39,656 nucleotides of DNA from Actinomycetota bacterium (GTDB lineage: Bacteria; Actinomycetota; UBA4738; HRBIN12): positions 1-39,656 of the forward strand of contig DATBMU010000035.1 in NCBI GenBank assembly GCA_036554665.1, given 5' to 3'. The translations under genes and the position numbers were made by a program. Below are positions 4,784 to 31,031 of the stretch, piece by piece. The notes under the pieces are model-generated. The model searched no databases, was not told the DNA's origin, and was given only the letters and a program-made list of their open reading frames with translations. Each line of letters opens with the position of its first letter. The stretch's first letter is position 1.

Positions 4784-4831
4784 CGCCCCGGGAGCCTACG
4801 TCGTGGGCGCGACCGCGGGTACGCTCGGGCC

Positions 4832-8481: not shown

Positions 8482-8522
8482 GCGTGTCCGCGCCGGCCGG
8501 CGGGATAGATTCAACGGGGACG

Positions 8523-10031: not shown

Positions 10032-11663
10032 CACGACCCACGCGCCGGGGGTCGTCCCGATCGCGAGGCCGAGGCGCTCGAGGGCGATCGCGACCAGGAC
10101 GAGCGCGGCGGCCCCGAGCGCCGGAGCGACGGCCGCGGCGGCGACCGCGTCGGGGACCGCGATCCGGGCCCACCCGTAGCCGACGGCGGCGAGGAGCGCC
10201 AGCGCCAGCACGCTCGAGACCCCGATCGCGCCGGCCGACGAGGGCTCGAGCGGATCCGTCTGCCCGAGGAGGTCCTTCACCGGTGACGAGGGGTCGATCG
10301 CGACGGCGTCCGCCGGCCGGTCGACCGGATCGAACGGCACGAGGACGAACCGCACCGCAGGTGTCCCCGAGACCGTCTCCGCACGGCGGAGATCGCTCGC
10401 GGTGAGCTCCTCGAGCGCCCGGCGTTCCGCGCTCGCCGGTCCGTCGCCCGCAGCAGGGACGACGACGACCACGTCGCGGATCCGATCGGCGGGCACGCCC
10501 GCGCGGATCACGTTCCCGGCGCGCGTCGCCAGGAAGCTGACGGTCCGGTCGGGGTCGTTCACGAGGAACGCCAGGGGCGTGGCCAGCTCGACCTCCGCCA
10601 CCGCCTCGCCCGCGATCGTCACCGCGCGCACCTCGTCCACGGACAGGAACGGCTCCTGTCGGTTCCACGCGATGAACGAACCGGCGAGCATCGCGAGCAC
10701 GGCCCCGGCCGCCACGGCGAGCGCGAGGGCCCGACGTCGCCCCAGCCACCTCGAGACGCGGACGACCCCGAGCGCCGCGAGGATCGGGACGACGAAGCCG
10801 AACGTGACGACGCGGTCGGCCGGGAACCATCCGGTCAGGAGCCCGATCGCCACGCCGGCCACGAGCGCGACGCCCCACGCGCGCAGGAACCGGCCGACGA
10901 ACCCGTCCGCCTCGCCGATCCCGACGACCGCGAGCGGCACCGAGACCCACTGCACGTAGCGCGTCCAGCGGTGCACGAAGCGATCGAGGTAGGAGGCGCG
11001 CAGCTCCGCCGTCAGCCCGGCGCGGCGCAGGAACGCGTCGCGCGACGTGTCGACGTCGAGCGGCGCCGGCCCGGCGAGCAGGGCCACGAGGCCGATCCCG
11101 ACGACCGAGCCCCCTCCCGCCACGGCCGCGGCGACCCGCGTGGCCTCGTCGCGGTGGCGGCGCCACGCGCTCGCCGCGGTCAACAGGAGGACGACGGCGC
11201 TCAGGAGGAAGAAGAGCGGATGGGCGAGGCCGCCGGCCGCGAGGGCGCCCGCGGCGACCCACGCCCCGCGCCGGGTCCCGCCGGCGAGCGCGACGGCCGC
11301 CGCCAGGAACGCCGTGATCTCGAGCAGGTTCGCCAGGTACCCCGCGGCGAGGTGGACGGCGAACGTGCCCGCGAGCGCGCCGGCGAGCACCCATCCCGCC
11401 GTCGTCGTGCGACCCCGCAGGAGCGCCGCGGACGCGAGGCCCACCGCGACCCCGAGCGAGATCTCCAGGGCCGCCACCGCCGCGACCACGGAGACCCTGA
11501 GCGTGCCCTGCAGCACGAGCGCGAGCGCCGGCGCGCCGGCCCGGCCGCCGACGGCCGACAGCCCCTCCGCACCCGCGATGCGCGTCCACCACAGGTAGAC
11601 GGGGGCGTCGGGCCCGAGGGGGAACGCGGCGCCCTGCGCGACGAAGGGCCACAGGAGCCACAC
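9942..11663 (-). CDS. Polytopic membrane protein with a central soluble domain (possible GT-C-like)
   Basis: 573-aa track ORF (GTG 11663). About 9 N-terminal TM helices, a roughly 130-aa soluble segment, and 2 C-terminal TM helices. GPDAPVYLWW lies in the first loop. The hydrophobic helix continues upstream of the GTG, so the true start may be CTG 11727-11729 (see findings). Confidence 0.55.
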   Translation of the reverse strand: MWLLWPFVAQGAAFPLGPDAPVYLWWTRIAGAEGLSAVGGRAGAPALALVLQGTLRVSVVAAVAALEISLGVAVGLASAALLRGRTTTAGWVLAGALAGTFAVHLAAGYLANLLEITAFLAAAVALAGGTRRGAWVAAGALAAGGLAHPLFFLLSAVVLLLTAASAWRRHRDEATRVAAAVAGGGSVVGIGLVALLAGPAPLDVDTSRDAFLRRAGLTAELRASYLDRFVHRWTRYVQWVSVPLAVVGIGEADGFVGRFLRAWGVALVAGVAIGLLTGWFPADRVVTFGFVVPILAALGVVRVSRWLGRRRALALAVAAGAVLAMLAGSFIAWNRQEPFLSVDEVRAVTIAGEAVAEVELATPLAFLVNDPDRTVSFLATRAGNVIRAGVPADRIRDVVVVVPAAGDGPASAERRALEELTASDLRRAETVSGTPAVRFVLVPFDPVDRPADAVAIDPSSPVKDLLGQTDPLEPSSAGAIGVSSVLALALLAAVGYGWARIAVPDAVAAAAVAPALGAAALVLVAIALERLGLAIGTTPGAWVVSAAAGGGGYVAWRVLERFAPVRPTPQVDQ

Positions 11664-15211: not shown

Positions 15212-16429
15212 TCACCGTTCGGCGACGCCGGGCAGGAAGATCGCGAACCGCGATCCCCGCGAGAGCTCGCTCTCGGCGGAGATGCGCCCGCCGAGCGCCT
15301 CCACGATGCGCTTGGCGAGCGCGAGCCCCAGCCCGGCACCCGCGCCGTGCCGGGACGGATCGGATCGGTAGAAGACGTCGAACACGTGATCCAGGTCCTC
15401 CGGGGCGATGCCCTCGCCGGTGTCGGCGACGGCCACCTCGAGCCCCGTCGCCGACCGCCGTGCCTCGACGCGCACGCTCCCGTCGGCCGGCGTGTGCCGA
15501 ACCGCGTTGACGAGCAGGTTCTGCAGCACCCGGACGAGGCGGGGCGAGCACGGCGCATCGTCGGCCCCGTTCAACCGCGTGACGAGCTCGAGGCGCTTCG
15601 TTTCGGCCTGGAGCCGGACGGTGGCGACCGCCGAGTCGACGAGCTCGCCGAGACGCGCGCGCTCGGACTCGGCCTCGATCGCTCCGGCGTCCAGCTGCAC
15701 GAGCTCGAAGAGGTCGTCGACCATCCCGACGAGCTGGTTCACCGAGCGGCGCATCTCACCGGCGTACCGGCGCATCGTCGGCGGGTCGTCGACGATGCCG
15801 TCGTCCACAGCCTCGACCATCGCGCGCACGCTCGCGAGCGGCGTCCGCAGATCGTGCGAGACGGCGCTGATCAGGTCCCGGCGGGTCGACTCGGCGTCGC
15901 GTTCCCTGCGCTGCGCCTCCTGGAGCCGGGACGCCATCTCGTCGAGCGTCCGAGCGAGCGTGTCGAGCTCGGGCCCCGCGTCGAGCGCACCGGTGCGCGC
16001 CTCGAGGTCTCCCTCGCCCAGCGCTCGCGCCGTGGCGGTCAACCGTCCGAGCGCTCTCGTCGACGTCCGCGCGGTGACGAGCGCGGCGCCGACCCCGGCG
16101 CCCAGCGAGTAGAGCAGCAGCACGCCGAGCAGCGTCGCATCGTGCTCGCTCACGAACATCTGCCGGGAGAGCACCCACAGGTTCGCCAACGCGATGGCCG
16201 TGCCGACCGCGCCGACCGCGACGAACCGCTGGGCGAGCGTGGCGCGCGCGAGCCACCGGCCGGCGAGGGCCATCGCGGCCACCGTCACCAGCAGCGCCGG
16301 GACGACGAACGCGGCGAGGTCGCCCAGCTCGCCGCCGTCCATGCCGGTGGCCGCGCCGACGACGAACGTGCCGGCGGCGCCGACCGCGGCCGCGGCGGCC
16401 AGGAGCAGGAGCGTGCGCCAGATCGTCAT
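15212..16429 (-). CDS. Sensor histidine kinase, membrane-embedded sensor with HAMP
   Basis: Start ATG 16429 overlaps the regulator stop (ATGA). About 4-5 TM helices with minimal loops. H-box SHDLRTPL, N-box LLVNAVRHTP, G1 VADTGEGI, G2 GAGLGLALAK. Confidence 0.85.
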   Translation of the reverse strand: MTIWRTLLLLAAAAAVGAAGTFVVGAATGMDGGELGDLAAFVVPALLVTVAAMALAGRWLARATLAQRFVAVGAVGTAIALANLWVLSRQMFVSEHDATLLGVLLLYSLGAGVGAALVTARTSTRALGRLTATARALGEGDLEARTGALDAGPELDTLARTLDEMASRLQEAQRRERDAESTRRDLISAVSHDLRTPLASVRAMVEAVDDGIVDDPPTMRRYAGEMRRSVNQLVGMVDDLFELVQLDAGAIEAESERARLGELVDSAVATVRLQAETKRLELVTRLNGADDAPCSPRLVRVLQNLLVNAVRHTPADGSVRVEARRSATGLEVAVADTGEGIAPEDLDHVFDVFYRSDPSRHGAGAGLGLALAKRIVEALGGRISAESELSRGSRFAIFLPGVAER

Positions 16430-17121
16430 GGGTCGAACCGGTAGCCGACCCCCCACACCGTGACGAGGTGTCGAGGATCCGACGGAGAGTCCTCGATCTT
16501 CTCGCGGAGCCGTCGCACGTGGACCGTCACCGTCGACGTGTCGCCGTCCCACGCGAAGTCCCAGACCTCCTCGAGGAGCTCCGACCGGGTGAGCGCCCGT
16601 CCCGGGTTCGTCGCGAGCAGGTACAGCAAGTCGAACTCCTTGCGCGTGAGCCGGATCGGCTCGCCGCCACGTCGCAGCTCGCGTCGCGGGCCGTCGATCT
16701 CGAGCTCGCCCGCGACGACGACGCGTCCGGGCGCGGTCGGGACGCGCGAGGACCGACGCAGCACGGCGCGGACGCGCGCGACCACCTCGCGTGGCGAGAA
16801 CGGCTTCGTGATGTAGTCGTCGGCCCCGAGCTCCAGCCCGACGACGCGGTCGGTCTCCTCGCCCTTGGCGGTGAGCATGATGACCGGGGTCGGGGTCCGC
16901 TCCCGGAGGCGGCGGAAGACCTCGAGGCCGTCGATCCTCGGCAGCATCAGGTCGAGGAGCACGAGGTCCGGCATCGTCGAGGCGGAGACCACGAGCGCTC
17001 GCTCGCCGTCCTCGGCGACGTCGACGGCGTACCCCTCCTTCTGCAGGTACCGGGCGAGCACGTCGCGGACCATCGGCTCGTCGTCAACCACGAGCACGCG
17101 GGGAGCGGCCACGGCATCCAT
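16426..17121 (-). CDS. OmpR/PhoB-family response regulator
   Basis: VLVVDDEP, DLVLLDLMLP, MLTAKGEE, and the winged-helix C-terminus TRKEFDLLYLL ... VWGVGYRF. AAGGTG SD upstream of ATG 17121. Confidence 0.9.
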   Translation of the reverse strand: MDAVAAPRVLVVDDEPMVRDVLARYLQKEGYAVDVAEDGERALVVSASTMPDLVLLDLMLPRIDGLEVFRRLRERTPTPVIMLTAKGEETDRVVGLELGADDYITKPFSPREVVARVRAVLRRSSRVPTAPGRVVVAGELEIDGPRRELRRGGEPIRLTRKEFDLLYLLATNPGRALTRSELLEEVWDFAWDGDTSTVTVHVRRLREKIEDSPSDPRHLVTVWGVGYRFDP

Positions 17122-17145
17122 GATGCACCTTGGAGGTTGCGGAAG

Positions 17146-17200
17146 CCTTAACGGGCTCGCCCGGTCGGGGATTCAAGCGTTCCGACGGCAGCCCGTAAGG
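17146..17200. other. Long imperfect hairpin in the divergent regulator / GT2-operon intergenic region
   Basis: Outer arms CCTTA(A)CGGGCT (17146-17157) / AGCCCGTAAGG (17190-17200). Inner arms CCG(G)TCGG (17161-17168) / CCGACGG (17182-17188). About 18 bp in total with two 1-nt bulges. Confidence 0.35.
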
Positions 17201-17233
17201 ATCCGATAACGACCCCGACGTCAGGCTGGCGGC

Positions 17234-17875
17234 ATGCCCGACGTCATCCTTCCCGTCCTCGATGAGGCCGAGGCCCTTCCGTGGGTGCTCCGGCGCTTCC
17301 CGGCGGGCTTCACCCCGATCGTGGTCGACAACGGCTCGACCGACGGATCGGGCCGGATCGCCCGGGCCCTCGGCGCCCGCGTCGTCCTCGAGCCGCTCCG
17401 GGGGTTCGGCGCCGCGTGCGCCGCGGGGCTCATCGCCGCCACCTCCGAGGTCGTGGCCTTCATGGACGCGGACGGATCGCTCGATCCCGTCGATCTGCCG
17501 TCGGTGACCGGCCCGGTGGAGCATCGGGAGGCGGATCTCGTCCTCGGTGAGCGGGTGGCCGAAGCGGGCGCCTGGCCGCTCCACGCCCGGGTCGGGAACC
17601 GCGCGGTGGCGTGGGAGGTCCGGCGCCGGACCAGGGTGTCACTGCGCGACCTCGGCCCGATGCGGGCCGCGCGCCGCGATGCACTGCGATCCCTCGGCAT
17701 CGGGGATCGGCGCTTCGGCTGGCCGCTCGAGATGGTCGTGCGCGCCGCGGAGGCCGGCTGGCGGATCCGGGAGGTGCCGGTGCCGTACCGCGCCCGCGCG
17801 GGCCGTTCGAAGGTGACGGGGACGGTCCGCGGGACCGCGAGGACGGTGCGGGACATGGCGAAGGTGCTGCGGTGA
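17234..17875 (+). CDS. Family-2 glycosyltransferase (short, soluble, polyprenyl-phosphate sugar synthase-like)
   Basis: 213 aa. VILPVLDEAEALP, VVDNGSTDGS, FMDADGS (DxD), and RGFGAACAAG acceptor-loop-like motif. Confidence 0.8.
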   Translation: MPDVILPVLDEAEALPWVLRRFPAGFTPIVVDNGSTDGSGRIARALGARVVLEPLRGFGAACAAGLIAATSEVVAFMDADGSLDPVDLPSVTGPVEHREADLVLGERVAEAGAWPLHARVGNRAVAWEVRRRTRVSLRDLGPMRAARRDALRSLGIGDRRFGWPLEMVVRAAEAGWRIREVPVPYRARAGRSKVTGTVRGTARTVRDMAKVLR

Positions 17876-18519
17876 GCGTGGCGCTGCTCGTGCTCGCGAA
17901 GTCCCCCGCGCCGGGCCGGTCGAAGACGCGGCTCTGCCCACCCTGCTCCTTCGATCAGGCGGCGTGCCTCGCCGAGGCGGCGCTCCTCGACACGCTCGAA
18001 GCGGTCGAGGCCGCGCGCACCCCGGGGAGGAGGGTGCTCGTGCTCGACGGTGAGCCGGGACCCTGGCGGCGACCGGGATGGGACGTCCTCGCCCAGCGGG
18101 GCCGGGGTATGGACGAACGGCTCGCGAACGCGTTCGCCGACGCGGGAGGCCCGGGGCTGCTCGTCGGCATGGACACGCCGCAGATCACGCCGGCGCTCCT
18201 CCGCGCATCCGTCGACACGCTGTGCGACCGCGGCGCGGTGCTCGGCCGCGCGGAGGACGGTGGCTACTGGGCGATCGGGCTTCGCGAGCCGGACCCGGCG
18301 GTGTTCCTCGGCGTCCCGATGAGCACCGCCAGCACGTTCCGGGCCCAACGCTGCAGGTTGCGGTCCCTGGGGATCGGATGCGAGGAGCTCCCGCCGCTCC
18401 GAGACGTGGACACGATCGACGACGCGTGGGCTGTGGCCGCGCGGGCGCCCACGTCCCGGTTCGCGCGGACGCTCGACGCGATCGGGAGCTCGATCCGACC
18501 GGCCGGGGCCATCGCGTGA
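17872..18519 (+). CDS. DUF2064 / CofC-like nucleotidyltransferase-fold protein
   Basis: GTG 17872 overlaps the upstream stop (GTGA). N-terminal LVLAKSPAPGRSKTRL is the DUF2064 hallmark. Also GMDTPQIT and DGGYWAIGL. Confidence 0.75.
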   Translation: MSVALLVLAKSPAPGRSKTRLCPPCSFDQAACLAEAALLDTLEAVEAARTPGRRVLVLDGEPGPWRRPGWDVLAQRGRGMDERLANAFADAGGPGLLVGMDTPQITPALLRASVDTLCDRGAVLGRAEDGGYWAIGLREPDPAVFLGVPMSTASTFRAQRCRLRSLGIGCEELPPLRDVDTIDDAWAVAARAPTSRFARTLDAIGSSIRPAGAIA

Positions 18520-19142
18520 GCGTCGTCGCCGACGAGGTCCGCGCCGTGGCCCGGCCGGCCGTCCGGCTCCGATCGGATCGAGGCGATCTCCTGCCGCTCG
18601 AGGTGGATCGGTGGTACGCCGAGCCGAGCGACGCCGAGCACGAGGTGCTGTCGCGCGCCATCCCACCTGTGCTCGATGTCGGCTGCGGTCCTGCCCGCCA
18701 CACGCTCGCGCTCCGGGCGCGCGGGGTCCCGGCGGTCGGGGTCGACGTCGCAGCCGGGGCCGTCCGCGTCGCGCGGGGTCGGGGCGCGCCGGTGCTGCAC
18801 CGCTCCGTGTTCGATCGGCTCCCGAACGAAGGTGCCTGGGGGACGGCGCTCCTGCTGGACGGGAACATCGGCATCGGCGGTGACCCCGTGTCCCTCCTCG
18901 CCCGGATCCGGCGCGTGCTCCGATCACGGGGGCGCGTGCTGCTCGAGCTGGATCGGCCGGGGACGCCGACCGATTCCTTCCTCGCGCGGATCGAGGGCTC
19001 CGGCTCGGGCTCCTGGTTCCCGTGGGCCCGGGTCGGAACGGACGCGATCGCGACGGTCGCTCGGGAGGCGGGGCTCGTGCTCCGCGAGGTATGGGAGGCG
19101 GACGACCGCTGGTTCGGGTGCCTCGACCGGCGACCGCCGTGA
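18516..19142 (+). CDS. Class I SAM-dependent methyltransferase
   Basis: GTG 18516 overlaps the upstream stop (GTGA). Motif I VLDVGCGPARH, and post-I acidic GVDV. Confidence 0.75.
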   Translation: MSVVADEVRAVARPAVRLRSDRGDLLPLEVDRWYAEPSDAEHEVLSRAIPPVLDVGCGPARHTLALRARGVPAVGVDVAAGAVRVARGRGAPVLHRSVFDRLPNEGAWGTALLLDGNIGIGGDPVSLLARIRRVLRSRGRVLLELDRPGTPTDSFLARIEGSGSGSWFPWARVGTDAIATVAREAGLVLREVWEADDRWFGCLDRRPP

Positions 19143-20335
19143 CCGGTCGCACCGAACGTCCACCGGCCTCCCGTCTGCGGCGGCTCGCGCCCCCGCGGGT
19201 GGGACCGTTCCGAGAGGGCGCGTTCCGGAGCGCGCTGCATTCCGTACGCAACGCCGCGTGGCTCGGCATCGCGCTCGGCGTCGCGTTCTCCGTCTGCTTC
19301 CTGACGGGTCTGCTCTCCCACCTGATCCAGCATCCGCCCGCCTGGTTCGGGTGGCCCGCCCGCCCGGCGTGGCTGTACCGCGTGACCCAGGGCGTGCACG
19401 TCGCGACCGGGCTGGCGGCGATCCCGCTACTGCTCGCCAAGCTGTGGGTGGTCGCGCCTCGCTTCTGGACCTGGCCACCGTTCCGGAGCCGCTCCCATCT
19501 GCTCGAGCGGCTGACGTTGCTCCCGTTGGTCGGCGGCAGCCTGTTCCTGCTCTTCACCGGCATCGGCAGCATCAACCGGTTCCGTCCTTGGAGCTTCTCG
19601 TTCCCGGCCGCCCACTACGCGGCGGCGTGGATCGCGATCGGCGGTCTCGTCGCCCACGTCGGTGCGAAGCTGCACGTGGCGGCGCGCGCGCTGTCGCGGC
19701 AGCACCTCCCGGAGACCCGGGCGCGGGAGACGGCGGCGCTCTCGCGACGCGGCTTCCTCGGTGCGGCCGCCGCGGCGGCGCTCGCGGTGACGGTGGCCAC
19801 CGTCGGACAGACCCTGCGTCCCCTCCGGCGCGTCTCCGTGCTCGCTCCGCGCGACCCGGCCGTGGGGCCCCAGGGCGTGCCGGTGAACCGGACGGCGCGC
19901 TCGGCCGGCGTCACGGCGACGGCCACGAGCCCCGACTACCGGCTCACCGTCGTGGGGAACGTGCGGACGCCGCTGTCGCTCTCCCTGGCAGAGCTCCGCG
20001 GGCTCCCCTCGCGCGAGGCCGATCTCACGGTGACGTGCGTCGACGGCTGGAGCGCCACCGCCGCGTGGCGCGGCATCCCCGTCCGCGACCTCCTCGCGCT
20101 CGCCGGGGTCGGTGCGCGACCGACGGTCGAGGTCGTCTCGCTCCAGGCACCCGGGTCGGCGTACGCGACCTCGATCCTCGACGCGGACCACGTCGCCGAT
20201 CCCGACACGTTGCTCGCGTTCGACCTCAACGGCGAGCCGCTCGTGCTCGACCACGGGTTCCCGGTTCGCCTGATCGCGCCGAACCGACCGGGCGTCATGC
20301 AGACGAAGTGGGTGACGGAGGTGGTCGTCTCATGA
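19139..20335 (+). CDS. Membrane-anchored molybdopterin oxidoreductase (5 TM plus SUOX-fold Moco domain)
   Basis: GTG 19139 overlaps the upstream stop (GTGA). Four His-containing TM helices, then the twin-arginine motif SRRGFLGAAAAAA (19742-19762 onward) forming TM5. C-terminal domain: DYRLTVVG, LTVTCVDGWS (Mo-ligand Cys context), LNGEPL..DHGFPVRLI.P...G...KWV. Confidence 0.8.
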   Translation: MTGRTERPPASRLRRLAPPRVGPFREGAFRSALHSVRNAAWLGIALGVAFSVCFLTGLLSHLIQHPPAWFGWPARPAWLYRVTQGVHVATGLAAIPLLLAKLWVVAPRFWTWPPFRSRSHLLERLTLLPLVGGSLFLLFTGIGSINRFRPWSFSFPAAHYAAAWIAIGGLVAHVGAKLHVAARALSRQHLPETRARETAALSRRGFLGAAAAAALAVTVATVGQTLRPLRRVSVLAPRDPAVGPQGVPVNRTARSAGVTATATSPDYRLTVVGNVRTPLSLSLAELRGLPSREADLTVTCVDGWSATAAWRGIPVRDLLALAGVGARPTVEVVSLQAPGSAYATSILDADHVADPDTLLAFDLNGEPLVLDHGFPVRLIAPNRPGVMQTKWVTEVVVS

Positions 20336-20787
20336 GCGCCGCCGACCGGATCTCGGGGACCGAGCCCGAGGACCCCGGCGGCCGGCTCTTCTGGTGCTGT
20401 TCCGTCGTCGGGTGGATCTCGATCGGGTTCGGGATCTGGACGCTGTTCGCCCGCGCCGGAGCGACCAGGCCCGCGGGCTTCGCGGCCTGGTTCGTGGGGC
20501 TCGCGGTTGCGCACGATCTCCTCGTCGTTCCCGCGGTCTCGCTCGTCGCCGTGTGGCTGGTCCCGCGCGTCCCCCGGCGGGTCGCCGGTCCGGTGGTGGG
20601 TGCCGCGATCGTGAGCGCGATCCTCGCGCTCGTCTCGCTCCCACCGCTGCTTGGCGACCCGGCCGACAACCCGTCCCTCCTCCCGAGGAACTACGTCGCC
20701 GGCCTGGTCGTCGCGCTGGTGGTCGTCTGGGGGGCCACGGCGACGTGGATCGGTGCGTCGCTCGTCCGTCGCCGGAGGGCGTCGTGA
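20332..20787 (+). CDS. Small 4-TM membrane protein (hypothetical)
   Basis: ATG 20332 overlaps the upstream stop (ATGA). 151 aa with four hydrophobic helices. Confidence 0.6.
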   Translation: MSAADRISGTEPEDPGGRLFWCCSVVGWISIGFGIWTLFARAGATRPAGFAAWFVGLAVAHDLLVVPAVSLVAVWLVPRVPRRVAGPVVGAAIVSAILALVSLPPLLGDPADNPSLLPRNYVAGLVVALVVVWGATATWIGASLVRRRRAS

Positions 20788-22106
20788 GGGCGCCCACCCT
20801 GGAGCGCGTCGCGCGGCCCGGTCCGGCATCCGGCGGCGCGGGCGGCACCTCCGCGTGGGTGGCCGTGGCGGCCACCGCGCTGGCCGTGGTCGCGGTGCAC
20901 GTCTGGGGCCGCTGGCTCCAGGCCCGTGGGCACCGGCTGTTCGTGAACCTCCCGCCGCTCACGGGGCACCTCGACCTCCGCCTCGGGTGGCAGGCGGTCG
21001 CCGCGCCCGTGGCGGCCGTGGCGGCGGTGGTCTGGGGGCCGGCGCTCGCCGCCCGTCTGCGCTGGCGTCGCCTGCTGGTCCTCTGCCTGCTCGCCGCCGC
21101 GACGTGGGCGCTCGCGCTCGCGATCACGGAAGGCGTCGGCGGCGTCCTGCGCTCGCCGGCGAGCCCGCGCGACTACCTGAGCGACGCCCCCTCGATCGAG
21201 GGACCGGTGCCGTTCCTCCGCACCTACGTCGACGAGATCGATCGCTACGCGACCCACGTGCGAGCCCACCCGCCCGGCATGACGCTGCTCGCCTGGGCGC
21301 TCGACCGTGCCGGCGGCGGGCCGGCCTGGCTCGCGGGCCTCGAGATCGTGATCGGTGCCTCGGCGATCCCCGCGGCGCTGATCGCGCTCCGCGAGACGTC
21401 CGGGGAACGGAGCGCCCGCGCGGCGGCGCCCTTCCTCGTGTTCGCGCCGGCCGCGATCACGCTCGGCTCCTCGGGCGATGCGCTCTTCGCCGGGGTCGGC
21501 GCGTGGGCCGTGACCCTGGTCGTGCTCGCGACCGGGCGCCACGGTAGCCGCGCCGACGCGCTCGCGGTCGCCGGTGGCTCGCTGTTCGGCGCGGCCGCGT
21601 TCCTGTCCTACGGGCTCGTGCTCCTGGCGGCGATCCCGCTCGCCGTCGCCGGTTCCCGGCGTCGGGCTCGTCCGATCCTGCTCGCCGGGCTCGGTGCCGT
21701 GCCCGTGTTCGCCGCCTTCTGGGTGGGCGGGTTCTCGTGGCTCGACGGGCTCGCCGCGACGCGCGTGGAATACGCGGAGAGCGTGGCCCGCTTCCGCCCG
21801 TACGCGTACTTCCTGGTCGCGAACCTCGCTGCGTTCGCCCTCGTGCTCGGGCCGGCCGGCGTGGCGGGCCTGGCCCGGCTGCGCCGGCGCTCGACGTGGG
21901 TGCTCGTCGGAGGGGCGCTCGTCGCGGTCGCGCTCGCGGACCTGTCCGGGATGTCCAAGGCCGAGGTCGAGCGGATCTGGCTGCCGTTCGTCCCGTGGGT
22001 GCTCCTCGCGACGAGCGCGCTGCCGCGCGGTGCCGCTCGTGGCTGGCTGGCCGCGAACGTCGGGACGGCGTTGGCGCTCGAGGTGGCGGTGACGCAACCG
22101 TGGTGA
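20784..22106 (+). CDS. Polytopic membrane protein, GT-C (ArnT/PMT)-like candidate
   Basis: GTG 20784 overlaps the upstream stop (GTGA). 440 aa with 10 or more TM helices. The first large loop carries YVDEIDRYATHVRAHPPGMTLL, resembling the DExxH ... HPPL loop motif of ArnT/PMT-type GT-C enzymes. Confidence 0.5.
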   Translation: MRAPTLERVARPGPASGGAGGTSAWVAVAATALAVVAVHVWGRWLQARGHRLFVNLPPLTGHLDLRLGWQAVAAPVAAVAAVVWGPALAARLRWRRLLVLCLLAAATWALALAITEGVGGVLRSPASPRDYLSDAPSIEGPVPFLRTYVDEIDRYATHVRAHPPGMTLLAWALDRAGGGPAWLAGLEIVIGASAIPAALIALRETSGERSARAAAPFLVFAPAAITLGSSGDALFAGVGAWAVTLVVLATGRHGSRADALAVAGGSLFGAAAFLSYGLVLLAAIPLAVAGSRRRARPILLAGLGAVPVFAAFWVGGFSWLDGLAATRVEYAESVARFRPYAYFLVANLAAFALVLGPAGVAGLARLRRRSTWVLVGGALVAVALADLSGMSKAEVERIWLPFVPWVLLATSALPRGAARGWLAANVGTALALEVAVTQPW

Positions 22107-23167
22107 GCCGCGTGCTCGTCACCGGTGGCGCGGGCTTCATCGGGTCGCACGTGGTCGACGAGCTCGTGGAACGCGGGGTCGAGGTCGTCGTGCTCGACGC
22201 CCTGATCCCACAGGCGCATGCGGCTCGACCGCCGTACCTGAACCCGGCCGCCGAGCTGGTGCTCGGCGATCTCCGGGACGGCGAGCTCCTCGAGCGCGCG
22301 CTCCGTGGCGTCGACGCGGTGTGTCACCAGGCCTCGATGGTGGGTCTCGGCGTCGACCTGCGCGATCTGACCGACTACGCGGCGCACAACGACCTCGGGA
22401 CCGCGAGCCTGCTCCGGGCGATGCACCGATGCGGCTCCGCCGGACGGATCGTGCTCGCGAGCAGCATGGTCGTCTACGGCGACGGGCGGTACCGGTGCCC
22501 CGTGCACGGCGACGTCCGACCGGGGCCGCGGCCCGTGGAGCGGCTCGCGGTCGGGGCGTTCGACCCCGTCTGCCCGAGCTGCGATCGCGACCTCGAGCCG
22601 CTCGCCGTCGGCGAGGACGCCCCCGGCGATCCGCGGAGCGTCTACGCGGCGACGAAGCTCCACCAGGAGCACCTGTGTGCCGTGTTCGGGCGCGAGACCG
22701 GGACGCCCGTGACGGTGCTCCGCTACCACAACGTGTTCGGGCCTCGGATGCCGCATCGGACGCCGTACGCGGGGGTCGCGAGCGTGTTCCGGAGCGCGCT
22801 CGAGGCGGGTCGACCGCCCCGCGTGTTCGAGGACGGGCGCCAGATCCGGGACTTCGTGCACGTCGAGGACGTCGCGCGAGCGAACGCGCTCGCGCTGCTC
22901 GCCGAGCCCGCGGTCCCCGGCGCGCTCAACGTCGCCAGCGGATCGCCGCGGACGATCGGAGCGATGGCGAACGCGATCTCGGCCGCGTTCGGCGAGCGGG
23001 CGCCGTCCCCGGTCGTGACCGGGGACTTCCGGCTGGGCGACGTGCGCCACGTGTTCGCGTCGACCGCGCGAGCGGAGCGCGAGCTCGGGTTCCGCGCGCG
23101 CGTGGACTTCGAGACGGGGATGCGCGGGTTCGCCCGGGCACGGCTCCGAGCCGCGGCGAACGCGTAA
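22103..23167 (+). CDS. NAD-dependent epimerase/dehydratase (extended SDR) with a Cys/His insertion
   Basis: GTG 22103 overlaps the upstream stop (GTGA). VTGGAGFIGSH Rossmann motif and catalytic YAATK. About 45-aa insertion containing CPVH ... CPSC. Confidence 0.85.
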   Translation: MSRVLVTGGAGFIGSHVVDELVERGVEVVVLDALIPQAHAARPPYLNPAAELVLGDLRDGELLERALRGVDAVCHQASMVGLGVDLRDLTDYAAHNDLGTASLLRAMHRCGSAGRIVLASSMVVYGDGRYRCPVHGDVRPGPRPVERLAVGAFDPVCPSCDRDLEPLAVGEDAPGDPRSVYAATKLHQEHLCAVFGRETGTPVTVLRYHNVFGPRMPHRTPYAGVASVFRSALEAGRPPRVFEDGRQIRDFVHVEDVARANALALLAEPAVPGALNVASGSPRTIGAMANAISAAFGERAPSPVVTGDFRLGDVRHVFASTARAERELGFRARVDFETGMRGFARARLRAAANA

Positions 23168-23201
23168 CGGACGGGTCCGGACGGAGGACGGAGGGGACGG
23201 G

Positions 23202-23813
23202 ATGCGGGACGCGGCGAGCCTGACGAGGACGATCCGGCGTCACCCGTGGCGGTGGGCGCTCGCCGTGGTGCTCGTGGCCGGCGCGATCGGGTTCGCCCTG
23301 TACTGGTTCGCGCCGTGGAACCTGATCGTGGACCGCCGCGTCGACGAGGCGCTGCCCACCGTCACGAGCGACGCGGGGGACCCCCCCGCGTCGACCTCGG
23401 GTGAGGGGACCGGCACCGGAACCGAAGGGACCGACGACGAGCCCGCTGTGGATGCTCCTGCCCGGATCGCGCTGGCGCGGGGGGCGTTCCGCGGCCTCGA
23501 GCACGCGACCTCGGGGACCGCGCTCCTCGTCCAGCTCGCGGACGGGTCCCGGTTCCTGCGGCTGGAGGACCTCGAGACCTCGAACGGACCGGACCTGCGC
23601 GTGATCGTCACCGACCGGCCGCTCTCGCAGGACTGGCACGTCTGGGACGACGGCGAGTACGTCGACCTCGGCCCGTTGAAGGGGAACCTCGGGAGCTCGA
23701 ACTACCGGATCCCGGCCGATCTCGACCTCTCGGGGTTCCGCACGGCGGTGATCTGGTGCCGGCGCTTCAGCGTCGGCTTCGGCGTGGCCCCGCTGGCCGC
23801 CGTGCCGGGATGA
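23202..23813 (+). CDS. Membrane-anchored DM13-domain protein
   Basis: GGAGGGGA SD before ATG 23202. N-terminal anchor WRWALAVVLVAGAIGFALYWF. DM13 pattern GAFRGLEH.TSGTA...DGSRFLRLEDLETSNGPDLRV ... LGPLKGNLGSSNYRIP ... AVIWCRRFSVGFGVAPL. Confidence 0.75.
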   Translation: MRDAASLTRTIRRHPWRWALAVVLVAGAIGFALYWFAPWNLIVDRRVDEALPTVTSDAGDPPASTSGEGTGTGTEGTDDEPAVDAPARIALARGAFRGLEHATSGTALLVQLADGSRFLRLEDLETSNGPDLRVIVTDRPLSQDWHVWDDGEYVDLGPLKGNLGSSNYRIPADLDLSGFRTAVIWCRRFSVGFGVAPLAAVPG

Positions 23814-23816
23814 TCC

Positions 23817-24659
23817 TCAGATCGTGGCCGGCCGCACCCCGGTCGCGATCAGCGTGAAGCAGACCGCGGCCGCCGCGAGCCGGTACCACAGGAAGATCGC
23901 GAAGTCGCGCGTCCGCAGGTACGACAGGAGGAACGCGATCACCATGAACCCGGAGACGGCCGACGCGATCGTCCCCGCGAGGAACGCGCCGCCCATGCCG
24001 GCCGGGATCCCTTCGCGCAGCAGGTCGATCCCCTTGTAGAGGCCGGCCCCCGCGATGATCGGCAGCGACAGCAGGAACGAGAACCGGGCCGCGGTCGGCC
24101 GGTCGAAGGACATCAGGCGCGCGGCCGACATCGTGACGCCGGAGCGGGAGATACCGGGCTGCAACGCGGCGGCCTGCGCGACCCCGAGCCACCAGCCGTT
24201 GGCGACCGACAGGTCGTCGAGGTGGCGTCGTGTCGAGGCGAGCCGGTCGATCACGTAGATCACGACGCCGAACACGGCGAGCATCAGCGCGATCAGCCAC
24301 GGCTGCCCGAGCTCGTCCTGGATCACGCCCTCGAGGGCCACACCGAGCACGACGCCCGGGATCGTGCCGACGACGAGCGCCCAGGCGAGCCGCTCGTCCG
24401 TCCCGGAGACGCTCCTCACGCGGATCGAGCCGAGCCACGCCCGCGCGTAGCGCACGACGTCGTGACGGAAGTAGACGAGCGCCCCGACGAGCGTCCCCAT
24501 GTGCAGCGCCACGTCGAACGTCTTGTTGAGGTCGGGGTCGTTCAGGATCGGCCACTCGAACAGCCACGGGACCAGGATCAGATGGCCCGAGCTCGAGACC
24601 GGGGCGAACTCGGTCACACCCTGGGTGATGCCGAGCACGATCGCCTGCAGGATGCTCAG
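23817..24659 (-). CDS. uppP: Undecaprenyl-diphosphate phosphatase
   Basis: QGVTEFAPVSSSGHL and the rest of the BacA/UppP fold. The track start (GTG 24638) removes most of TM1. The in-frame upstream codons read LSILQAIV, as in UppP N-termini. GGAGGAAGG lies 8 nt (counted from the GGAGG core) before CTG 24657-24659, so I place the start there. Confidence 0.8.
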   Translation of the reverse strand: MSILQAIVLGITQGVTEFAPVSSSGHLILVPWLFEWPILNDPDLNKTFDVALHMGTLVGALVYFRHDVVRYARAWLGSIRVRSVSGTDERLAWALVVGTIPGVVLGVALEGVIQDELGQPWLIALMLAVFGVVIYVIDRLASTRRHLDDLSVANGWWLGVAQAAALQPGISRSGVTMSAARLMSFDRPTAARFSFLLSLPIIAGAGLYKGIDLLREGIPAGMGGAFLAGTIASAVSGFMVIAFLLSYLRTRDFAIFLWYRLAAAAVCFTLIATGVRPATI

Positions 24660-24668
24660 GGGACCTTC

Positions 24669-24715
24669 CTCCGGGAGCGGGCCGGCGCAATCCTAGACGG
24701 GGCGCGCTCCCGGAG
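24669..24715 (-). other. 11-bp perfect stem-loop overlapping the uppP Shine-Dalgarno
   Basis: CTCCGGGAGCG (24669-24679) / CGCTCCCGGAG (24705-24715), 25-nt loop. On the minus-strand RNA the 3' arm ends in the GGAG of the uppP SD. It also lies 10 nt past the CpaB-like gene stop. Confidence 0.45.
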
Positions 24716-24724
24716 CCCGGTGGC

Positions 24725-25393
24725 TCACGCGATCGATGACGCCGGGGCGATCGCGACGGCGAGGTCGGCGAACGCCGAGGCGTAGGCGAGCTCCTCCGCG
24801 ATCTCGGGGCCGACGAGGAGCACGAGCGTCGGGCCGGCGGAGCCGCCGGCCGCGAACGTCCCCTCGTCCGGCTCCAGGACGGTGAGCACCTCGAGGCCGC
24901 TCGCGACCGTGTCGGTGTAGGGGCGGGGACCCCCGAACGTCGCGAGCACGTCGACGAGGTCGCCCGGGCGGACCGCGCCCGCGGCGCCGCCGACGGCGAC
25001 GGGGAACGCGCGGAGACCCTGGGGCACGAGCGAGGCGACCGGCCCGCCCGCCACGCCTACCCGGGTCTGGGTGATCGCCTCGCCCTCGGCGACGTCGGAG
25101 ACGAGCGTCCGCCCGGCGAGCGAGCCCGGCGCCGCGACCCGTCCCGGCGGCGCGAACGCGGCCGGCACGAGGTCCACGCGGAGCGCCTCCTCCGAGAGCA
25201 CCGCGCCCCGCGAGAGCGCCGTGGCGGCCACGACGACCGCGACCGGCTCGCCGACCACCGGACGGAGCGCCTCGAGGCGGGCCGCGTACCCGTCGACGAG
25301 CGCGTACGCGCCGGCCGCGGAGACGACGGCGAGCGCCGCGAAGACCTTCGACCGCCGGGACCACTTCCGAGCGAGCAGACCGCGCGCCAACAC
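24725..25393 (-). CDS. SAF-domain / CpaB (RcpC)-like protein, N-terminally anchored
   Basis: 222 aa, GTG start. TM VFAALAVVSAAGAYALV. SAF-like VAVVVAATALSRGAVLSEEAL, then the RcpC-like segment GLRAFPVAV ... VRPGDLVDVLATF. Confidence 0.6.
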   Translation of the reverse strand: MLARGLLARKWSRRSKVFAALAVVSAAGAYALVDGYAARLEALRPVVGEPVAVVVAATALSRGAVLSEEALRVDLVPAAFAPPGRVAAPGSLAGRTLVSDVAEGEAITQTRVGVAGGPVASLVPQGLRAFPVAVGGAAGAVRPGDLVDVLATFGGPRPYTDTVASGLEVLTVLEPDEGTFAAGGSAGPTLVLLVGPEIAEELAYASAFADLAVAIAPASSIA

Positions 25394-25618: not shown

Positions 25619-26413
25619 CTAGGCCTCGAAGCTCGCGCCCTCGAGGGCCGAGGCGCACGGGCAGTCGCGGGTCTCGGGGATCGCCGGGACGATCTCGAAG
25701 AGCAGGTCGCGGAGCCTGGCGTTGTTCTCGCCGAACACGCGCACGACCTCGTCGTTCGTCACCGGCGGGACGCCCTCGACGCCGACGTCGTAGTCCGTGA
25801 TGAGGGAGATGTTCGCGTAGCAGAGCTCGAGCTCGCGCGCGAGCAGCGACTCGGGGTACTGGGTCATGTTGATGACCTCCCAGCCGGCCGCCTTGAACCA
25901 CGCCGACTCGGCCCGGGTCGAGAACCGCGGGCCCTCGATCACGACGACGGTCCCGCGATCGTGCACCGGGATGCCGAGCGCGCGCGCCCGGTCGATCGCG
26001 ATGCCGCGCATCGTCGGGCAGTACGGGTCGGCGAACGAGACGTGCGTGGTCACCGGGCCGTCGTAGAACGTGTGCGGGCGCAGCCGGGTGCGGTCGACGA
26101 CCTGGTCGCAGATCACGAAGTCGCCAGGCGTGACGTGCTCCTGGAGCGAGCCGCACGCGTTCGGCCCGATGATCCGCGTGACCCCGAGCTCCTTCATCGC
26201 CCAGGCGTTCGCGAGGTACGGGATCCGGTGCGGCGGCAGCTCGTGCCGGGTCCCGTGCCGCGGGATGAACGCGACCCGCCGCCCACCGACCTCGCCGACC
26301 ACCGGCGGCGCGGAGGGCCTGCCGTAGGGCGTGTCCACGTCGACGGTCTCGGTGTCCTCCAGGAAGGAGGTGAACCCCGACCCCCCGAACACCCCGATCT
26401 CGGCGGTGCTCAC
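25619..26413 (-). CDS. mtnP: S-methyl-5'-thioadenosine phosphorylase
   Basis: GTG 26413 overlaps the upstream stop (GTGA). GVFGGSGF, FIPRHG..H..PPH.IPY.AN, IIGPNACGSL, EGPRFST.AES, INMT..PE, and the C-terminal DCPCASAL. Confidence 0.85.
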   Translation of the reverse strand: MSTAEIGVFGGSGFTSFLEDTETVDVDTPYGRPSAPPVVGEVGGRRVAFIPRHGTRHELPPHRIPYLANAWAMKELGVTRIIGPNACGSLQEHVTPGDFVICDQVVDRTRLRPHTFYDGPVTTHVSFADPYCPTMRGIAIDRARALGIPVHDRGTVVVIEGPRFSTRAESAWFKAAGWEVINMTQYPESLLARELELCYANISLITDYDVGVEGVPPVTNDEVVRVFGENNARLRDLLFEIVPAIPETRDCPCASALEGASFEA

Positions 26414-27793: not shown

Positions 27794-29053
27794 ATGGCGC
27801 ACGCCCACGTGCACGACCACGACAGCGGCGAGGGCCTCGTCCCGGTGGACGAGGCTCGCGAGCGGCTCCTCGGCAGCCTGGATCCGCTCCAGCCGCTCGA
27901 GCTCCCGCTCACCGAGGCTTACGGATGCGTGCTGGTCCAGGACGTGGTCTCCGACGTGGACATCCCCGCGTTCGCGAGCTCGGCGATGGACGGGTTCGCG
28001 CTCCGTTCCTCGGACGTGGCCGCCGCGACGCCGCTCGACCCCGTCGAGCTGCGGATCGCGGGCCGGGCGCTGATCGGTCAGCGGCCGGAAGGGACGGTCG
28101 GCGGGGGCGAGGCGATCCGGATCGCGACCGGGGCCCCGATCCCGGCGGGCGCCGACACGATCGTGCCGATCGAGAACTGCGAGCTCCAGGGTGACGCCGT
28201 CCGGATCCTGGCCGCCTCGCCGGAGGGCAAGCACATCCGCCCGGCGGGCGAGGACGTGCGCGCCGGCGATCCGCTCGTCCCTGCCGGGCGACGGCTCCAG
28301 GCGCCCGAGCTCGGCCTGCTCGCGGCGGCCGGTGTGTCGCACCCGCTGGTCCGGCCGCGGGCCCGCGTCGTCGTGCTCTCGACCGGGGACGAGCTCGTCC
28401 CGCCGACGCAGACGCCGGAGTTCGGCCAGGTGCACGACTCCAACGCCTACCTGCTGTTCGCCGCGATCCGCGAGGCGGGCGCCGTGCCGATGCTCGCCGG
28501 CGTCGTCCCCGACGACGTCGACGCGCTCAAGGACGCCGTGCTGTCGCACCTCGTGCAGGCGGACGCCTTCGTCTCCTCCGGCGGGGTCTCTGTGGGGGAG
28601 CGCGACGTTGTGAAGGCCGCGTTCTTCCGGCGGGGGGACGTGGACTTCTACCGGGTCGCGATGCAGCCGGGGATGCCGCAGGGCTTCGGCCACGTCGAGG
28701 GCAAGCCGTACTTCGGCCTGCCGGGCAACCCGGTGAGCGTGTTCGTGAGCTTCGAGGTCTTCATCCGGCCCGCGCTGATGAAGATGATGGGGCGCCGGAA
28801 CCTGTTCCGCCCCGAGGTCACGGCGCGCCTGGAGACCGACGTCTCCGGACCTCGCGGCAAGACGCAGTACGCGCGGGTCCGCGTGAAGCGCACGCGCGAG
28901 GGGTGGACGGCCACCCCGACCGGCGCGCGCGGCTCGAACCTCATCGCGACGGTCGCGCGCGCCAACGGGCTCGCGATGGTCCCCGCGGGCGTCGAGACCG
29001 CCGAGGCCGGCTCGGAGGTCCGCGTGATGCTCTTCCGGTCGATGGAGGAGTAG
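27794..29053 (+). CDS. moeA: MoeA-fold molybdopterin molybdotransferase (gephyrin-like; Glp-type by synteny)
   Basis: 419 aa. FASSAMDGFA, IATGAPIPAGADTIV, VVVLSTGDELV, SGGVSVGERD, GLPGNPVS. Confidence 0.85.
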   Translation: MAHAHVHDHDSGEGLVPVDEARERLLGSLDPLQPLELPLTEAYGCVLVQDVVSDVDIPAFASSAMDGFALRSSDVAAATPLDPVELRIAGRALIGQRPEGTVGGGEAIRIATGAPIPAGADTIVPIENCELQGDAVRILAASPEGKHIRPAGEDVRAGDPLVPAGRRLQAPELGLLAAAGVSHPLVRPRARVVVLSTGDELVPPTQTPEFGQVHDSNAYLLFAAIREAGAVPMLAGVVPDDVDALKDAVLSHLVQADAFVSSGGVSVGERDVVKAAFFRRGDVDFYRVAMQPGMPQGFGHVEGKPYFGLPGNPVSVFVSFEVFIRPALMKMMGRRNLFRPEVTARLETDVSGPRGKTQYARVRVKRTREGWTATPTGARGSNLIATVARANGLAMVPAGVETAEAGSEVRVMLFRSMEE

Positions 29054-29054
29054 G

Positions 29055-29549
29055 GTGGCCGACCCCGGCGGCTCGGCCCCTGGCCGCTCGACTCCCGGCG
29101 GCTCGGCGCGGATCGTCGAGGTCGGCGCGAAGGAGATCACCGACCGCGAGGCGGTGGCGGGCTGCCTCGTGACGATGACGCCGGAGGCCTGCGCGCGGCT
29201 CGTCGAGGGCACGCCCAAGGGCAACCCGATCGAGGCCGCGAGGATCGCCGGCGTGATGGGCGTGAAGCGCACGCCCGACCTCCTGCCGTTCTGCCATCCG
29301 ATCGCCGTGACGGGCGCCGAGGTCACGGTCACGCCGGAGCCCGACGCCGGGCGGATCCACGTCCGGGCGACCGTCCGCGCGCGGGACCGGACGGGCGTCG
29401 AGATGGAGGCCCTCACCGCCGCGGCGGTCGCCGCGCTGTCCCTGTACGACACCGCGAAGGCCTACGACCGCGCCGCGAGGATCGACGGCCTGCGCCTGCT
29501 CGAGAAGCGCGGCGGCAAGTCCGGCCACTACGTCGCCGCGCCCGACTGA
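29055..29549 (+). CDS. moaC: Cyclic pyranopterin monophosphate synthase MoaC
   Basis: GTG 29055 lies 1 nt after the moeA stop. VEVGAKEITDREA, LLPFCHPI, GVEMEALTAAAVAALSLYD. Confidence 0.85.
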   Translation: MADPGGSAPGRSTPGGSARIVEVGAKEITDREAVAGCLVTMTPEACARLVEGTPKGNPIEAARIAGVMGVKRTPDLLPFCHPIAVTGAEVTVTPEPDAGRIHVRATVRARDRTGVEMEALTAAAVAALSLYDTAKAYDRAARIDGLRLLEKRGGKSGHYVAAPD

Positions 29550-30957: not shown

Positions 30958-31031
30958 GGGGGTGTAGCTCAGTCCGGTAGAGCGCTGCCTTCGCACGGCA
31001 GAGGTCGGCGGTTCGAGTCCGCTCACCTCCA
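30958..31031 (+). tRNA. tRNA-Ala (anticodon CGC)
   Basis: Manual cloverleaf. Acceptor GGGGGTG/CACCTCC with the G3:U70 Ala identity pair. D arm GCTC-AGTCCGGTA-GAGC. Anticodon arm CTGCC-TTCGCAC-GGCAG. T arm GGCGG-TTCGAGT-CCGCT. Discriminator A. CCA is not encoded. A TACGCT -10-like hexamer lies at 30941-30946. Confidence 0.95.

Follow-up and report, generated by a model that had tools for sequence, protein, structure and literature searches.

Methylthioxylose (MTX) on lipoarabinomannan is the epitope of the most sensitive urine tests for tuberculosis and provides a handle for selective labelling. In Mycobacterium tuberculosis, we take the relevant genes to be mtxS (Rv0539), mtxT (Rv0541c), pnp (Rv0535), galE3 (Rv0536) and Rv0540, which encodes a protein of the DUF2064 type, and the sugar is reportedly made from methylthioadenosine through methylthioribose-1-phosphate and a nucleotide sugar that is epimerised, loaded as decaprenyl-phosphate-MTX and delivered to lipoarabinomannan. 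The cluster is said to have been reported by Angala et al. in 2017 as comprising pnp, encoding an S-methyl-5'-thioadenosine phosphorylase (MTAP), galE3, and the genes for a family 2 glycosyltransferase (GT2), a DUF2064 protein and a GT-C glycosyltransferase. Here we analyse a contig of 39,656 nucleotides from an Actinomycetota bacterium of the UBA4738 lineage (DATBMU010000035.1 in assembly GCA_036554665.1; this whole stretch, with a G+C content of 73-75%, is referred to below as the window) that carries, at positions 17234 to 23813 of the forward strand, an eight-gene operon which very probably encodes a pathway of the MTX type, together with a membrane-bound molybdenum cofactor (Moco) oxidoreductase and, on the opposite strand, a two-component system.

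Two described proteins share the architecture of this oxidoreductase. The topology of Sco3746 was mapped by Tooke et al. (2017) as five transmembrane (TM) domains with a cytoplasmic twin arginine (RR) before TM domain 5 and export of the domain after it by the twin-arginine translocation (Tat) system, as demonstrated with reporters fused in place of that domain; the family was predicted to bind two haems b, and the study was concerned with membrane insertion only, assigning neither a physiological function nor a genomic association, in contrast to the cluster linkage described below. M. tuberculosis Rv0218 has been described as having several TM segments and a molybdopterin domain at its C-terminus, and is reported to be needed in vivo and to be associated with meningeal tuberculosis.

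The operon and its methylthioxylose-type gene set

The eight reading frames proposed in the first-pass annotation of this DNA are all open on translation; seven are joined by six four-nucleotide overlaps (GTGA at 17872, 18516, 19139, 20784 and 22103, and ATGA at 20332), and the eighth follows after a gap of 34 nucleotides. Gene calling by codon composition recovered the same genes, preferring later starts for gene 4 (19199, also used in one JGI gene call) and gene 6 (20859); the longer, overlapping starts are backed by homologues with 100% query coverage. Four-nucleotide overlaps are common in this genome, given that 4 of the 17 other same-strand neighbour pairs in the window have one, and orthologous clusters are tightly overlapped as well, as seen in two of the loci compared. 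The six successive overlaps argue for an operon, yet are not exceptional.

The pathway assignment was led by gene 6 (20784..22106), a polytopic protein of 440 residues without any Pfam or NCBIfam family match, because JGI gives the name 'methylthioxylose transferase' to many of its homologues at 52-72% identity, and likewise to its mycolicibacterial relatives. The AlphaFold2 (AF2) model, built with 22 homologues (pLDDT 86.5, pTM 0.89), has the GT-C fold that had been predicted from the first loop of the protein: the top ~30 Foldseek matches in the PDB are all GT-C enzymes (AftA, AglB, ArnT, STT3, EmbB, Pmt4, ALG9, PimE and PglB). The loop motif itself is invariant in its HPPG part (H158-x3-H162-P-P-G165, along with invariant Y131, F144 and L145), whereas the acidic residues to which weight had also been given are conserved only partly. 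By fold and homologue names, gene 6 encodes an MtxT (Rv0541c)-like protein that would move a sugar from a polyprenyl-phosphate donor to an envelope glycan.

Gene 1 (17234..17875) encodes a GT2 of 213 residues (Pfam Glycos_transf_2, 7e-17) that is closest, as previously proposed, to polyprenyl- and dolichyl-phosphate sugar synthases, the best partial matches among NCBIfam models being AglJ, a dolichyl-P-hexose transferase and PpgS, all under their cut-offs; it is MtxS (Rv0539)-like. It overlaps by four nucleotides with gene 2 (17872..18519), which encodes a protein of 215 residues with a CofC-like nucleotidyltransferase fold, comparable to Rv0540 (Pfam DUF2064, 3e-25, 88.6 bits against a cut-off of 25.8; match to PDB 3cgx at 1e-13). 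The first-pass annotation had placed this protein outside any lipid-linked pathway, a view that no longer holds given that DUF2064 is part of the MTX gene set. Four natural fusions of 638-643 residues combine DUF2064 with the GT-C protein, which provides independent support for a link between a cytoplasmic activation step and the membrane transferase; gene 2 would be a candidate for the activation of 5-methylthioribose-1-phosphate to a nucleotide sugar. Gene 7 (22103..23167) encodes an extended short-chain dehydrogenase/reductase (SDR) of 354 residues, a GalE3 (Rv0536)-like nucleotide-sugar epimerase (Pfam Epimerase, 6e-49, 167 bits). Finally, 1.8 kb downstream of the operon, an MTAP gene of the Rv0535/pnp type is encoded on the reverse strand (25619..26413; NF005876, 356.5 against 306; TIGR01694, 302.5 against 274.85), so that all five MTX enzyme classes (MTAP, DUF2064, SDR, GT2 and GT-C) lie inside 9 kb.

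The SDR contains an insertion of ~45 residues (residues ~128-172) with a zinc-ribbon-like C-x2-H...C-P-x-C pattern. This Cys/His insertion is common to most of the 12 other cluster SDRs that were aligned, that of Mycolicibacterium rutilum included, and, being foreign to ordinary GalE enzymes, may mark a subfamily of ribo-to-xylo epimerases.

The DUF2064 protein also reaches the cut-off of TIGR04282 (134.1 against 134), one of a pair of arsenosugar families. The arsenosugar pair TIGR04282/TIGR04283 was rejected as an identity for genes 1 and 2: the GT2 scores 32.9 against 182 with TIGR04283, and the cluster contains no radical S-adenosylmethionine (SAM) gene of the ArsS type, the sole radical SAM gene of the window being RlmN-like (4625-5890). 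Automatic pipelines would label the DUF2064 protein 'arsenosugar biosynthesis glycosyltransferase', probably a misannotation in the MTX context. The arsenosugar and MTX pathways would both handle 5-substituted 5-deoxy-pentoses derived from SAM.

We infer the chemistry of the individual steps from homology to the M. tuberculosis model. MTAP would turn methylthioadenosine into 5-methylthioribose-1-phosphate, from which the DUF2064 protein would make a nucleotide sugar; the SDR would epimerise it to the xylo form, the GT2 would load the xylo sugar onto polyprenyl phosphate and, outside the membrane, the GT-C protein would pass it to an acceptor of the mannan or lipoglycan type. The first-pass annotation had likened four of the proteins to an Arn-type pathway and had known of no lipid-linked pathway for the other four, but the gene set largely matches the characterised MTX cluster of M. 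tuberculosis: the five enzyme classes, similar protein sizes, the names of the GT-C homologues and a bridge of synteny through mycolicibacteria are common to both. Compared with that pathway, the window cluster adds a methyltransferase, a haem-b/Moco oxidoreductase with its partner and a two-component system, and is arranged as a single overlap-chained operon; to our knowledge, the M. tuberculosis locus is without genes for the Moco protein, its partner, the methyltransferase, the regulator and the kinase. The bridge is seen in the complete genome of M. rutilum (cluster at LT629971.1, 441706-463061), where the genes for the GT-C protein, the Moco protein and its small partner are followed, on the opposite strand, by those for the methyltransferase, the DUF2064 protein and the GT2, and then by the regulator and the kinase; the epimerase gene and, beside it, the PNP (MTAP) gene lie a few genes away, and the flanks include pitA, a DUF3349 gene and an AMP-binding (menE-like) gene. 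These flanks agree with what we take to be the gene order of the Rv0535-Rv0545c region of M. tuberculosis. The M. rutilum cluster proteins are 39-52% identical to those of the window, with 50% for the GT2, and a search started from a Mycolicibacterium GT-C orthologue returned, among its best 120 matches, only proteins of Mycolicibacterium or unclassified Mycobacterium sp.

Co-inheritance of the cluster across Actinomycetota

To place the operon in a comparative context, one genome per species was scanned with the GT-C alignment as seed. A relative of the GT-C protein is present in more than 500 genomes, of which 80 loci, at 35-70% identity, were analysed; they come from Acidimicrobiia, Thermoleophilia and Actinomycetes, Pseudonocardia, Amycolatopsis, Williamsia and Mycolicibacterium among them. 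These loci were searched with the window proteins (tblastn). Flanks of 6 kb or more on either side are present in 45 loci (well-flanked loci); in 37 of them, the GT2 gene is co-localised with the GT-C gene, and these 37, with both the GT2 and DUF2064 genes beside the GT-C gene, are hereafter called clusters. The SDR gene is found in 97% of the clusters, the Moco gene in 89%, the methyltransferase gene in 78%, the regulator and kinase genes in ~70%, an MTAP gene within 10 kb in 27% and the DM13 gene in 5%. An independent scan of metagenomes, seeded on the Moco protein, produced a closely similar picture in 20 well-flanked contigs (DUF2064 90%, GT2 85%, SDR 80%, methyltransferase 75%, two-component system 70%).

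Thus, the orthologues of the operon genes are indeed co-localised in dozens of other genomes, and the earlier proposal of a single co-inherited unit is borne out. Gene orders vary, from a colinear one as in the window to a divergent one with the regulator and kinase genes between the GT-C and SDR genes, and because the arrangements differ, the linkage is upheld by selection and is more than inherited synteny. Unbiased clustering of the flanking open reading frames (ORFs) of the 80 loci yielded no further strongly conserved gene except for a beta-propeller ORF that occupies the place of the methyltransferase gene. While the core pathway is known, the near-universal association of MTX genes with a Moco enzyme and its partner, a methyltransferase and a two-component system appears to be new in the literature searched, in which we found no relevant joint mention of methylthioxylose and molybdenum terms.

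Gene 3 (18516..19142) encodes a class I SAM methyltransferase of 208 residues, predicted to be cytoplasmic (Methyltransf_25/11), which named families match only weakly; its best PDB matches are the unnamed methyltransferases 9klx and 9khp, on which a literature search retrieved nothing relevant. In the clusters that have it, the gene is always beside the DUF2064 gene; the product is a conserved accessory enzyme and may O-methylate either the sugar or its donor. The prevalence of this gene bears on the best surviving alternative, namely, that the same lipid-linked relay carries another sugar, either an O-methylated MTX or a sulfinyl or sulfonyl sugar that is oxidised on purpose, with the methyltransferase and the Moco enzyme as tailoring steps. 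Such a sugar is suggested by the presence of the methyltransferase in 75-78% of clusters, with translational coupling to the DUF2064 gene on one side and the Moco gene on the other, by its presumed absence from the M. tuberculosis cluster, and by the fact that the DUF2064 protein just reaches the threshold of a family which NCBI ties to another 5-substituted 5-deoxy-pentose, the arsenosugar. However, the Moco domain is outside and the methyltransferase is cytoplasmic, and therefore the two share no soluble intermediate; oxidation of a thioether with menaquinone as the acceptor is thermodynamically unfavourable; and the Moco and methyltransferase genes each occur in some clusters that lack the other. 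We consider a different sugar unlikely, though worth keeping in mind, whereas an MTX-type pathway is assigned with high confidence and its product is probably MTX itself.

In one sub-lineage of the Thermoleophilia/Solirubrobacterales type, represented by six loci (L017, with the gene at 7494-8534 on the reverse strand, L019, L025, L035, L050 and L067), the methyltransferase gene is absent, and an ORF of ~340 codons for a lipoprotein-like NHL/beta-propeller protein separates the DUF2064 gene from a Moco gene that is itself divergent (~40% identical). At another locus, L020 (JALYLM010000066.1), the flanks of the window are shared (TldD, UppP, a CpaB-like protein, MTAP, GalU, MoeA and GT87) but the operon site has kept only an MtxT-like gene (49% identical), and the genes for the GT2, the DUF2064 protein, the Moco protein and the SDR are missing; a lone MtxT-like paralogue is also present in seven other loci. 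The nearest genome is an uncultured Actinomycetes metagenome-assembled genome (L002; CAZXFA010000021), which is syntenic over the matched part of the window with 56-84% protein identity. Copies of genes 2-6 that are identical or 99-100% identical exist in a Logan contig (SRR11622295) and in JGI metagenomes, and an exact look-up of a window protein gave a 4.8-kb Logan contig as its sole match.

The outward-facing molybdoenzyme and its partner

Gene 4 (19139..20335) encodes a Moco membrane oxidoreductase of 398 residues of the Sco3746/Rv0218 type (Oxidored_molyb, 2.5e-30). Four TM segments are evident from hydropathy and a fifth helix (157-184) from the AF2 model; an RR at 203-204 stands ahead of the last TM segment (204-224), in a region recognised by the TAT_signal model (residues 201-221, 18.6 against a cut-off of 16.7). 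The likeness to the described architecture of the Sco3746 family thus extends to the five TM domains, the membrane histidines, the RR directly before TM domain 5 and the C-terminal Moco domain, in agreement with the outward orientation that had been proposed for this protein, and the Moco domain would be exported by Tat via the internal RR motif. Rv0218 may be the unlinked M. tuberculosis counterpart of the cluster Moco protein. In an alignment of 28 homologues, H87, H159, H173, C300 and the C-V-D-G-W-S motif are invariant, and the N-terminal four-TM part with its conserved histidines is predicted to bind two haems b. The TM domain of the M. rutilum orthologue shows a faint match to cytochrome b561 (E 0.012), and no cluster protein matches Ferric_reduct or MsrQ in Pfam or NCBIfam.

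The loop around the molybdenum-ligating cysteine bears on the direction of catalysis. For the 60-residue segment containing this cysteine, a gap-free alignment was obtained only with E. coli YedY/MsrP (1xdq; CVDGWS/CVEAWS, and CVDGWS...W.G.P...LLALA), whereas sulfite dehydrogenases and oxidases need an insertion with the substrate arginine to be aligned; with chicken sulfite oxidase, the alignment requires gaps of ~19 residues in total over the CAGNRR... segment. Furthermore, gene 4 ends right after the Moco domain, without the sulfite-oxidase dimerisation domain, and its scores with the SorA, SoxC and SorT models fall well short of the respective cut-offs. A role as a sulfite oxidase was rejected, both the arginine loop and the dimerisation domain being absent. 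With the YedY-like Cys loop and neither of these sulfite-oxidase features, an MsrP-like reductase is favoured, although the protein is not an MsrP equivalog: its match to the NCBIfam MsrP model, over residues 263-394, has 38.7 bits where the cut-off is 207.

Gene 5 (20332..20787) encodes a protein of 151 residues with four TM segments, for which the first-pass annotation had suggested a flippase subunit of the ArnE/F type. This protein has no Pfam or NCBIfam match even at E<=1, EamA and SMR included, and a profile search places its gene immediately after the Moco gene in 48 of 52 loci, with no case in which it occurs without a Moco gene; the four exceptions to adjacency are two contig ends and two loci with divergent Moco genes. 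In view of this adjacency, the protein is an obligate partner of the Moco protein, and the identity as a flippase was rejected, since the gene follows the Moco gene and not the transferases. The family comprises 651 clusters at 50% identity, is without a Pfam model, and has only a His-Asp pair in TM segment 2 and an Ala-Pro pair conserved at 90% or above.

A close parallel is the E. coli MsrPQ (YedYZ) system, which is induced by HprRS. The two share a Tat-exported Moco protein of the SUOX fold, the Cys-loop motif, a membrane haem-b component, an adjacent two-component system and, in the proposed chemistry, quinol-driven reduction of a sulfoxide outside the cytoplasm. They differ in that the haem-b part here is not of the MsrQ/FRD type and is fused to the N-terminus of the Moco protein, in the separate partner of 151 residues, in a much shorter Moco domain (~150 residues) and in the proposed substrate, a glycan sulfoxide rather than protein methionine sulfoxide. 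Electron flow from menaquinol to a sulfoxide is downhill, and that from a thioether to menaquinone is uphill. Passages of PMC10503756 that cite its references 44-47 give an anti-oxidative role as a proposal for MTX and name a sulfoxide form of the MTX sugar as a natural carbohydrate substrate of M. tuberculosis MsrA. Together with the Cys loop and the favourable direction of electron flow, these reports lead to a model in which methylsulfinyl-xylose is reduced to methylthio-xylose: the Moco module and its partner would take electrons from menaquinol and reduce the methylsulfinyl (sulfoxide, MSX) sugar to the thioether, so that a coat of thio-sugar would act as a rechargeable oxidant sink, analogous to the action of MsrPQ on methionine sulfoxide. 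The extracytoplasmic redox step of the first-pass annotation survives in this model, narrowed to the reduction of a thio-sugar sulfoxide. We lean, if only slightly, towards the combined interpretation, namely, that the operon, the divergent two-component system and the MTAP gene form an extended, regulated MTX pathway that decorates a glycan and includes a methylsulfinyl-sugar reductase, driven by quinol and acting outside the cytoplasm. The assignment of the Moco module itself as a glycan sulfoxide reductase is tentative, and it is rather doubtful that the Moco/haem-b protein and its partner constitute the first dedicated repair enzyme for oxidised carbohydrates, driven by menaquinol and switched on by its own two-component system.

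The same features could fit a module of general envelope repair or detoxification, that is, an actinobacterial enzyme that does for methionine sulfoxide in proteins what MsrPQ does, or a reductase of sulfite or of other S- or N-oxides; it would belong to the same envelope-stress regulon as the sugar genes but would leave the sugar untouched. The presence of a divergent two-component system by an operon of the MsrP type recalls E. coli hprRS-msrPQ, the Cys loop is YedY/MsrP-like, the JGI COG name is 'YedYZ catalytic subunit', and homologues of Sco3746 are found also in Firmicutes, Chloroflexi and Euryarchaeota (Tooke et al. 2017). However, the linkage with the sugar genes is tight in both directions (85-90%), across gene orders and in three classes of Actinomycetota, and the Moco gene is inside the translationally coupled string, with the methyltransferase and GT-C genes on either side; general repair is, accordingly, improbable. 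An aminoarabinose-style system modifying lipid A or a teichoic-like polymer, the Arn-type reading of the first-pass annotation with a flippase and unrelated extra enzymes, shares the logic of nucleotide-sugar tailoring by an SDR, GT2 loading onto polyprenyl phosphate, flipping and GT-C transfer, and ArnT (5ezm) is among the structural matches, but it is hardly credible, given that no component belongs to the respective families (ArnC, 20.7 bits against a cut-off of 529; no PMT_2/ArnT or EamA/SMR match), that there is no aminotransferase or formyltransferase, that the putative 'flippase' is the Moco partner, its gene following the Moco gene and not the transferases, and that MTAP, DUF2064 and the homologues named 'methylthioxylose transferase' speak for MTX.

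Several observations weigh against an MTX pathway with a dedicated sulfoxide reductase. Orthology to Rv0539-0541c and to Rv0218/0219 rests on third-party names, synteny and the presumed M. tuberculosis gene order; the conserved methyltransferase hints at a product other than plain MTX; and M. tuberculosis presumably makes MTX without a clustered Moco or methyltransferase gene, which implies that these genes are dispensable for the synthesis. As for the enzyme itself, 11% of the clusters lack the Moco gene, the Foldseek comparison assigns gene 4 to the SUOX fold with YedY and sulfite dehydrogenases scoring alike (both ~1e-10) and cannot part the two, and whole-domain sequence scores are higher for sulfite oxidases than for YedY. 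The haem ligands and the quinol site are predicted, and the TM part of the AF2 model is of low confidence.

Regulation, flanking genes and biological significance

The divergent two-component system had been described correctly in the first pass: an OmpR-family response regulator (16426..17097, reverse strand; Response_reg and Trans_reg_C) and a histidine kinase of the intramembrane-sensing type (15212..16429, reverse strand; HAMP-HisKA-HATPase) with four TM segments and tiny loops. In other clusters, these two genes often lie between the GT-C and SDR genes. A candidate response-regulator site or promoter element, CGTAAGG-N5-ATAACG, is present on the forward strand at 17194..17211, beginning 40 nucleotides upstream of the GT2 start; its sequence, CGTAAGGATCCGATAACG, forms a direct repeat with an 11-bp period, and the element is unique to this position in the window. 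In 42 of 59 clusters, the motif GTAA[GT][GC], mostly in the form CGTAAG[GC], precedes the GT2 start by 28-139 nucleotides (mostly 28-68); among random 160-nucleotide windows, 2.3% contain it. In loci of the divergent type, the consensus of the element is GAGTTTCGCGAAtCGTAAGC, followed after ~40 nucleotides by a TAnnnT-like element beside the start codon. Rfam contains no RNA family that matches the GT2 leader, and consensus scans of 16900-24800 detected no promoter or terminator. The CGTAAG repeat resembles activator sites of the OmpR family and is predicted to be bound by the regulator, which would drive the operon from this repeat after the loop-less kinase senses a signal in the membrane or envelope.

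The last gene of the operon, gene 8 (23202..23813), encodes a DM13 protein (7e-25) of 203 residues anchored by one N-terminal TM segment, for which a sequence search of the PDB found no related solved structure. Of the 80 genome loci, only L002 and L026, which represent the two closest relatives, have the DM13 gene, and all 20 well-flanked metagenome contigs are without it; hence, it is not the core operon component it had been taken for but a lineage-specific addition. Of the genes that had been cited as context, uppP (23817-24638), MoeA/MoaC (27794-29549) and PAP2 (36594-37286) are all present, but as conserved neighbours in the lineage and not as members of the cluster.

Further upstream, a gene for a polytopic mannosyltransferase-like protein of the GT87 family (8523-10031, forward strand) is located beside an unannotated gene for a polytopic membrane protein of 573 residues (9942-11663, reverse strand). 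This pair is syntenic in two other loci (L008 and L020), and the gene for the 573-residue protein is found alone in L002; the pair may build the mannan or lipoglycan acceptor of the thio-sugar. The window also contains a homocysteine S-methyltransferase gene (3869-4783, reverse strand), a SulP/STAS sulfate permease gene (34799-36478, reverse strand) and one tRNA gene (30958-31031, forward strand); the genes of sulfur and methionine metabolism lie 13 kb away from the operon, to which they are not linked in any conserved manner.

MTX-type genes seem to be widespread in Actinomycetota, and in the sampled clusters they are usually accompanied by a two-component system of their own and by an MsrP-like molybdoenzyme that faces outward. 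With this association, the idea of an antioxidant sugar becomes testable both genetically and biochemically, and what is at stake is the role of MTX as well as the origin and fate of its sulfoxide form. The cluster linkage also provides a candidate function for the Sco3746/Rv0218 family, which so far has been characterised only with respect to its unusual membrane insertion by Sec and Tat. If the model is true, actinobacteria would gain a rechargeable coat of antioxidant sugar, and the function would extend to Rv0218/Rv0219 of M. tuberculosis.

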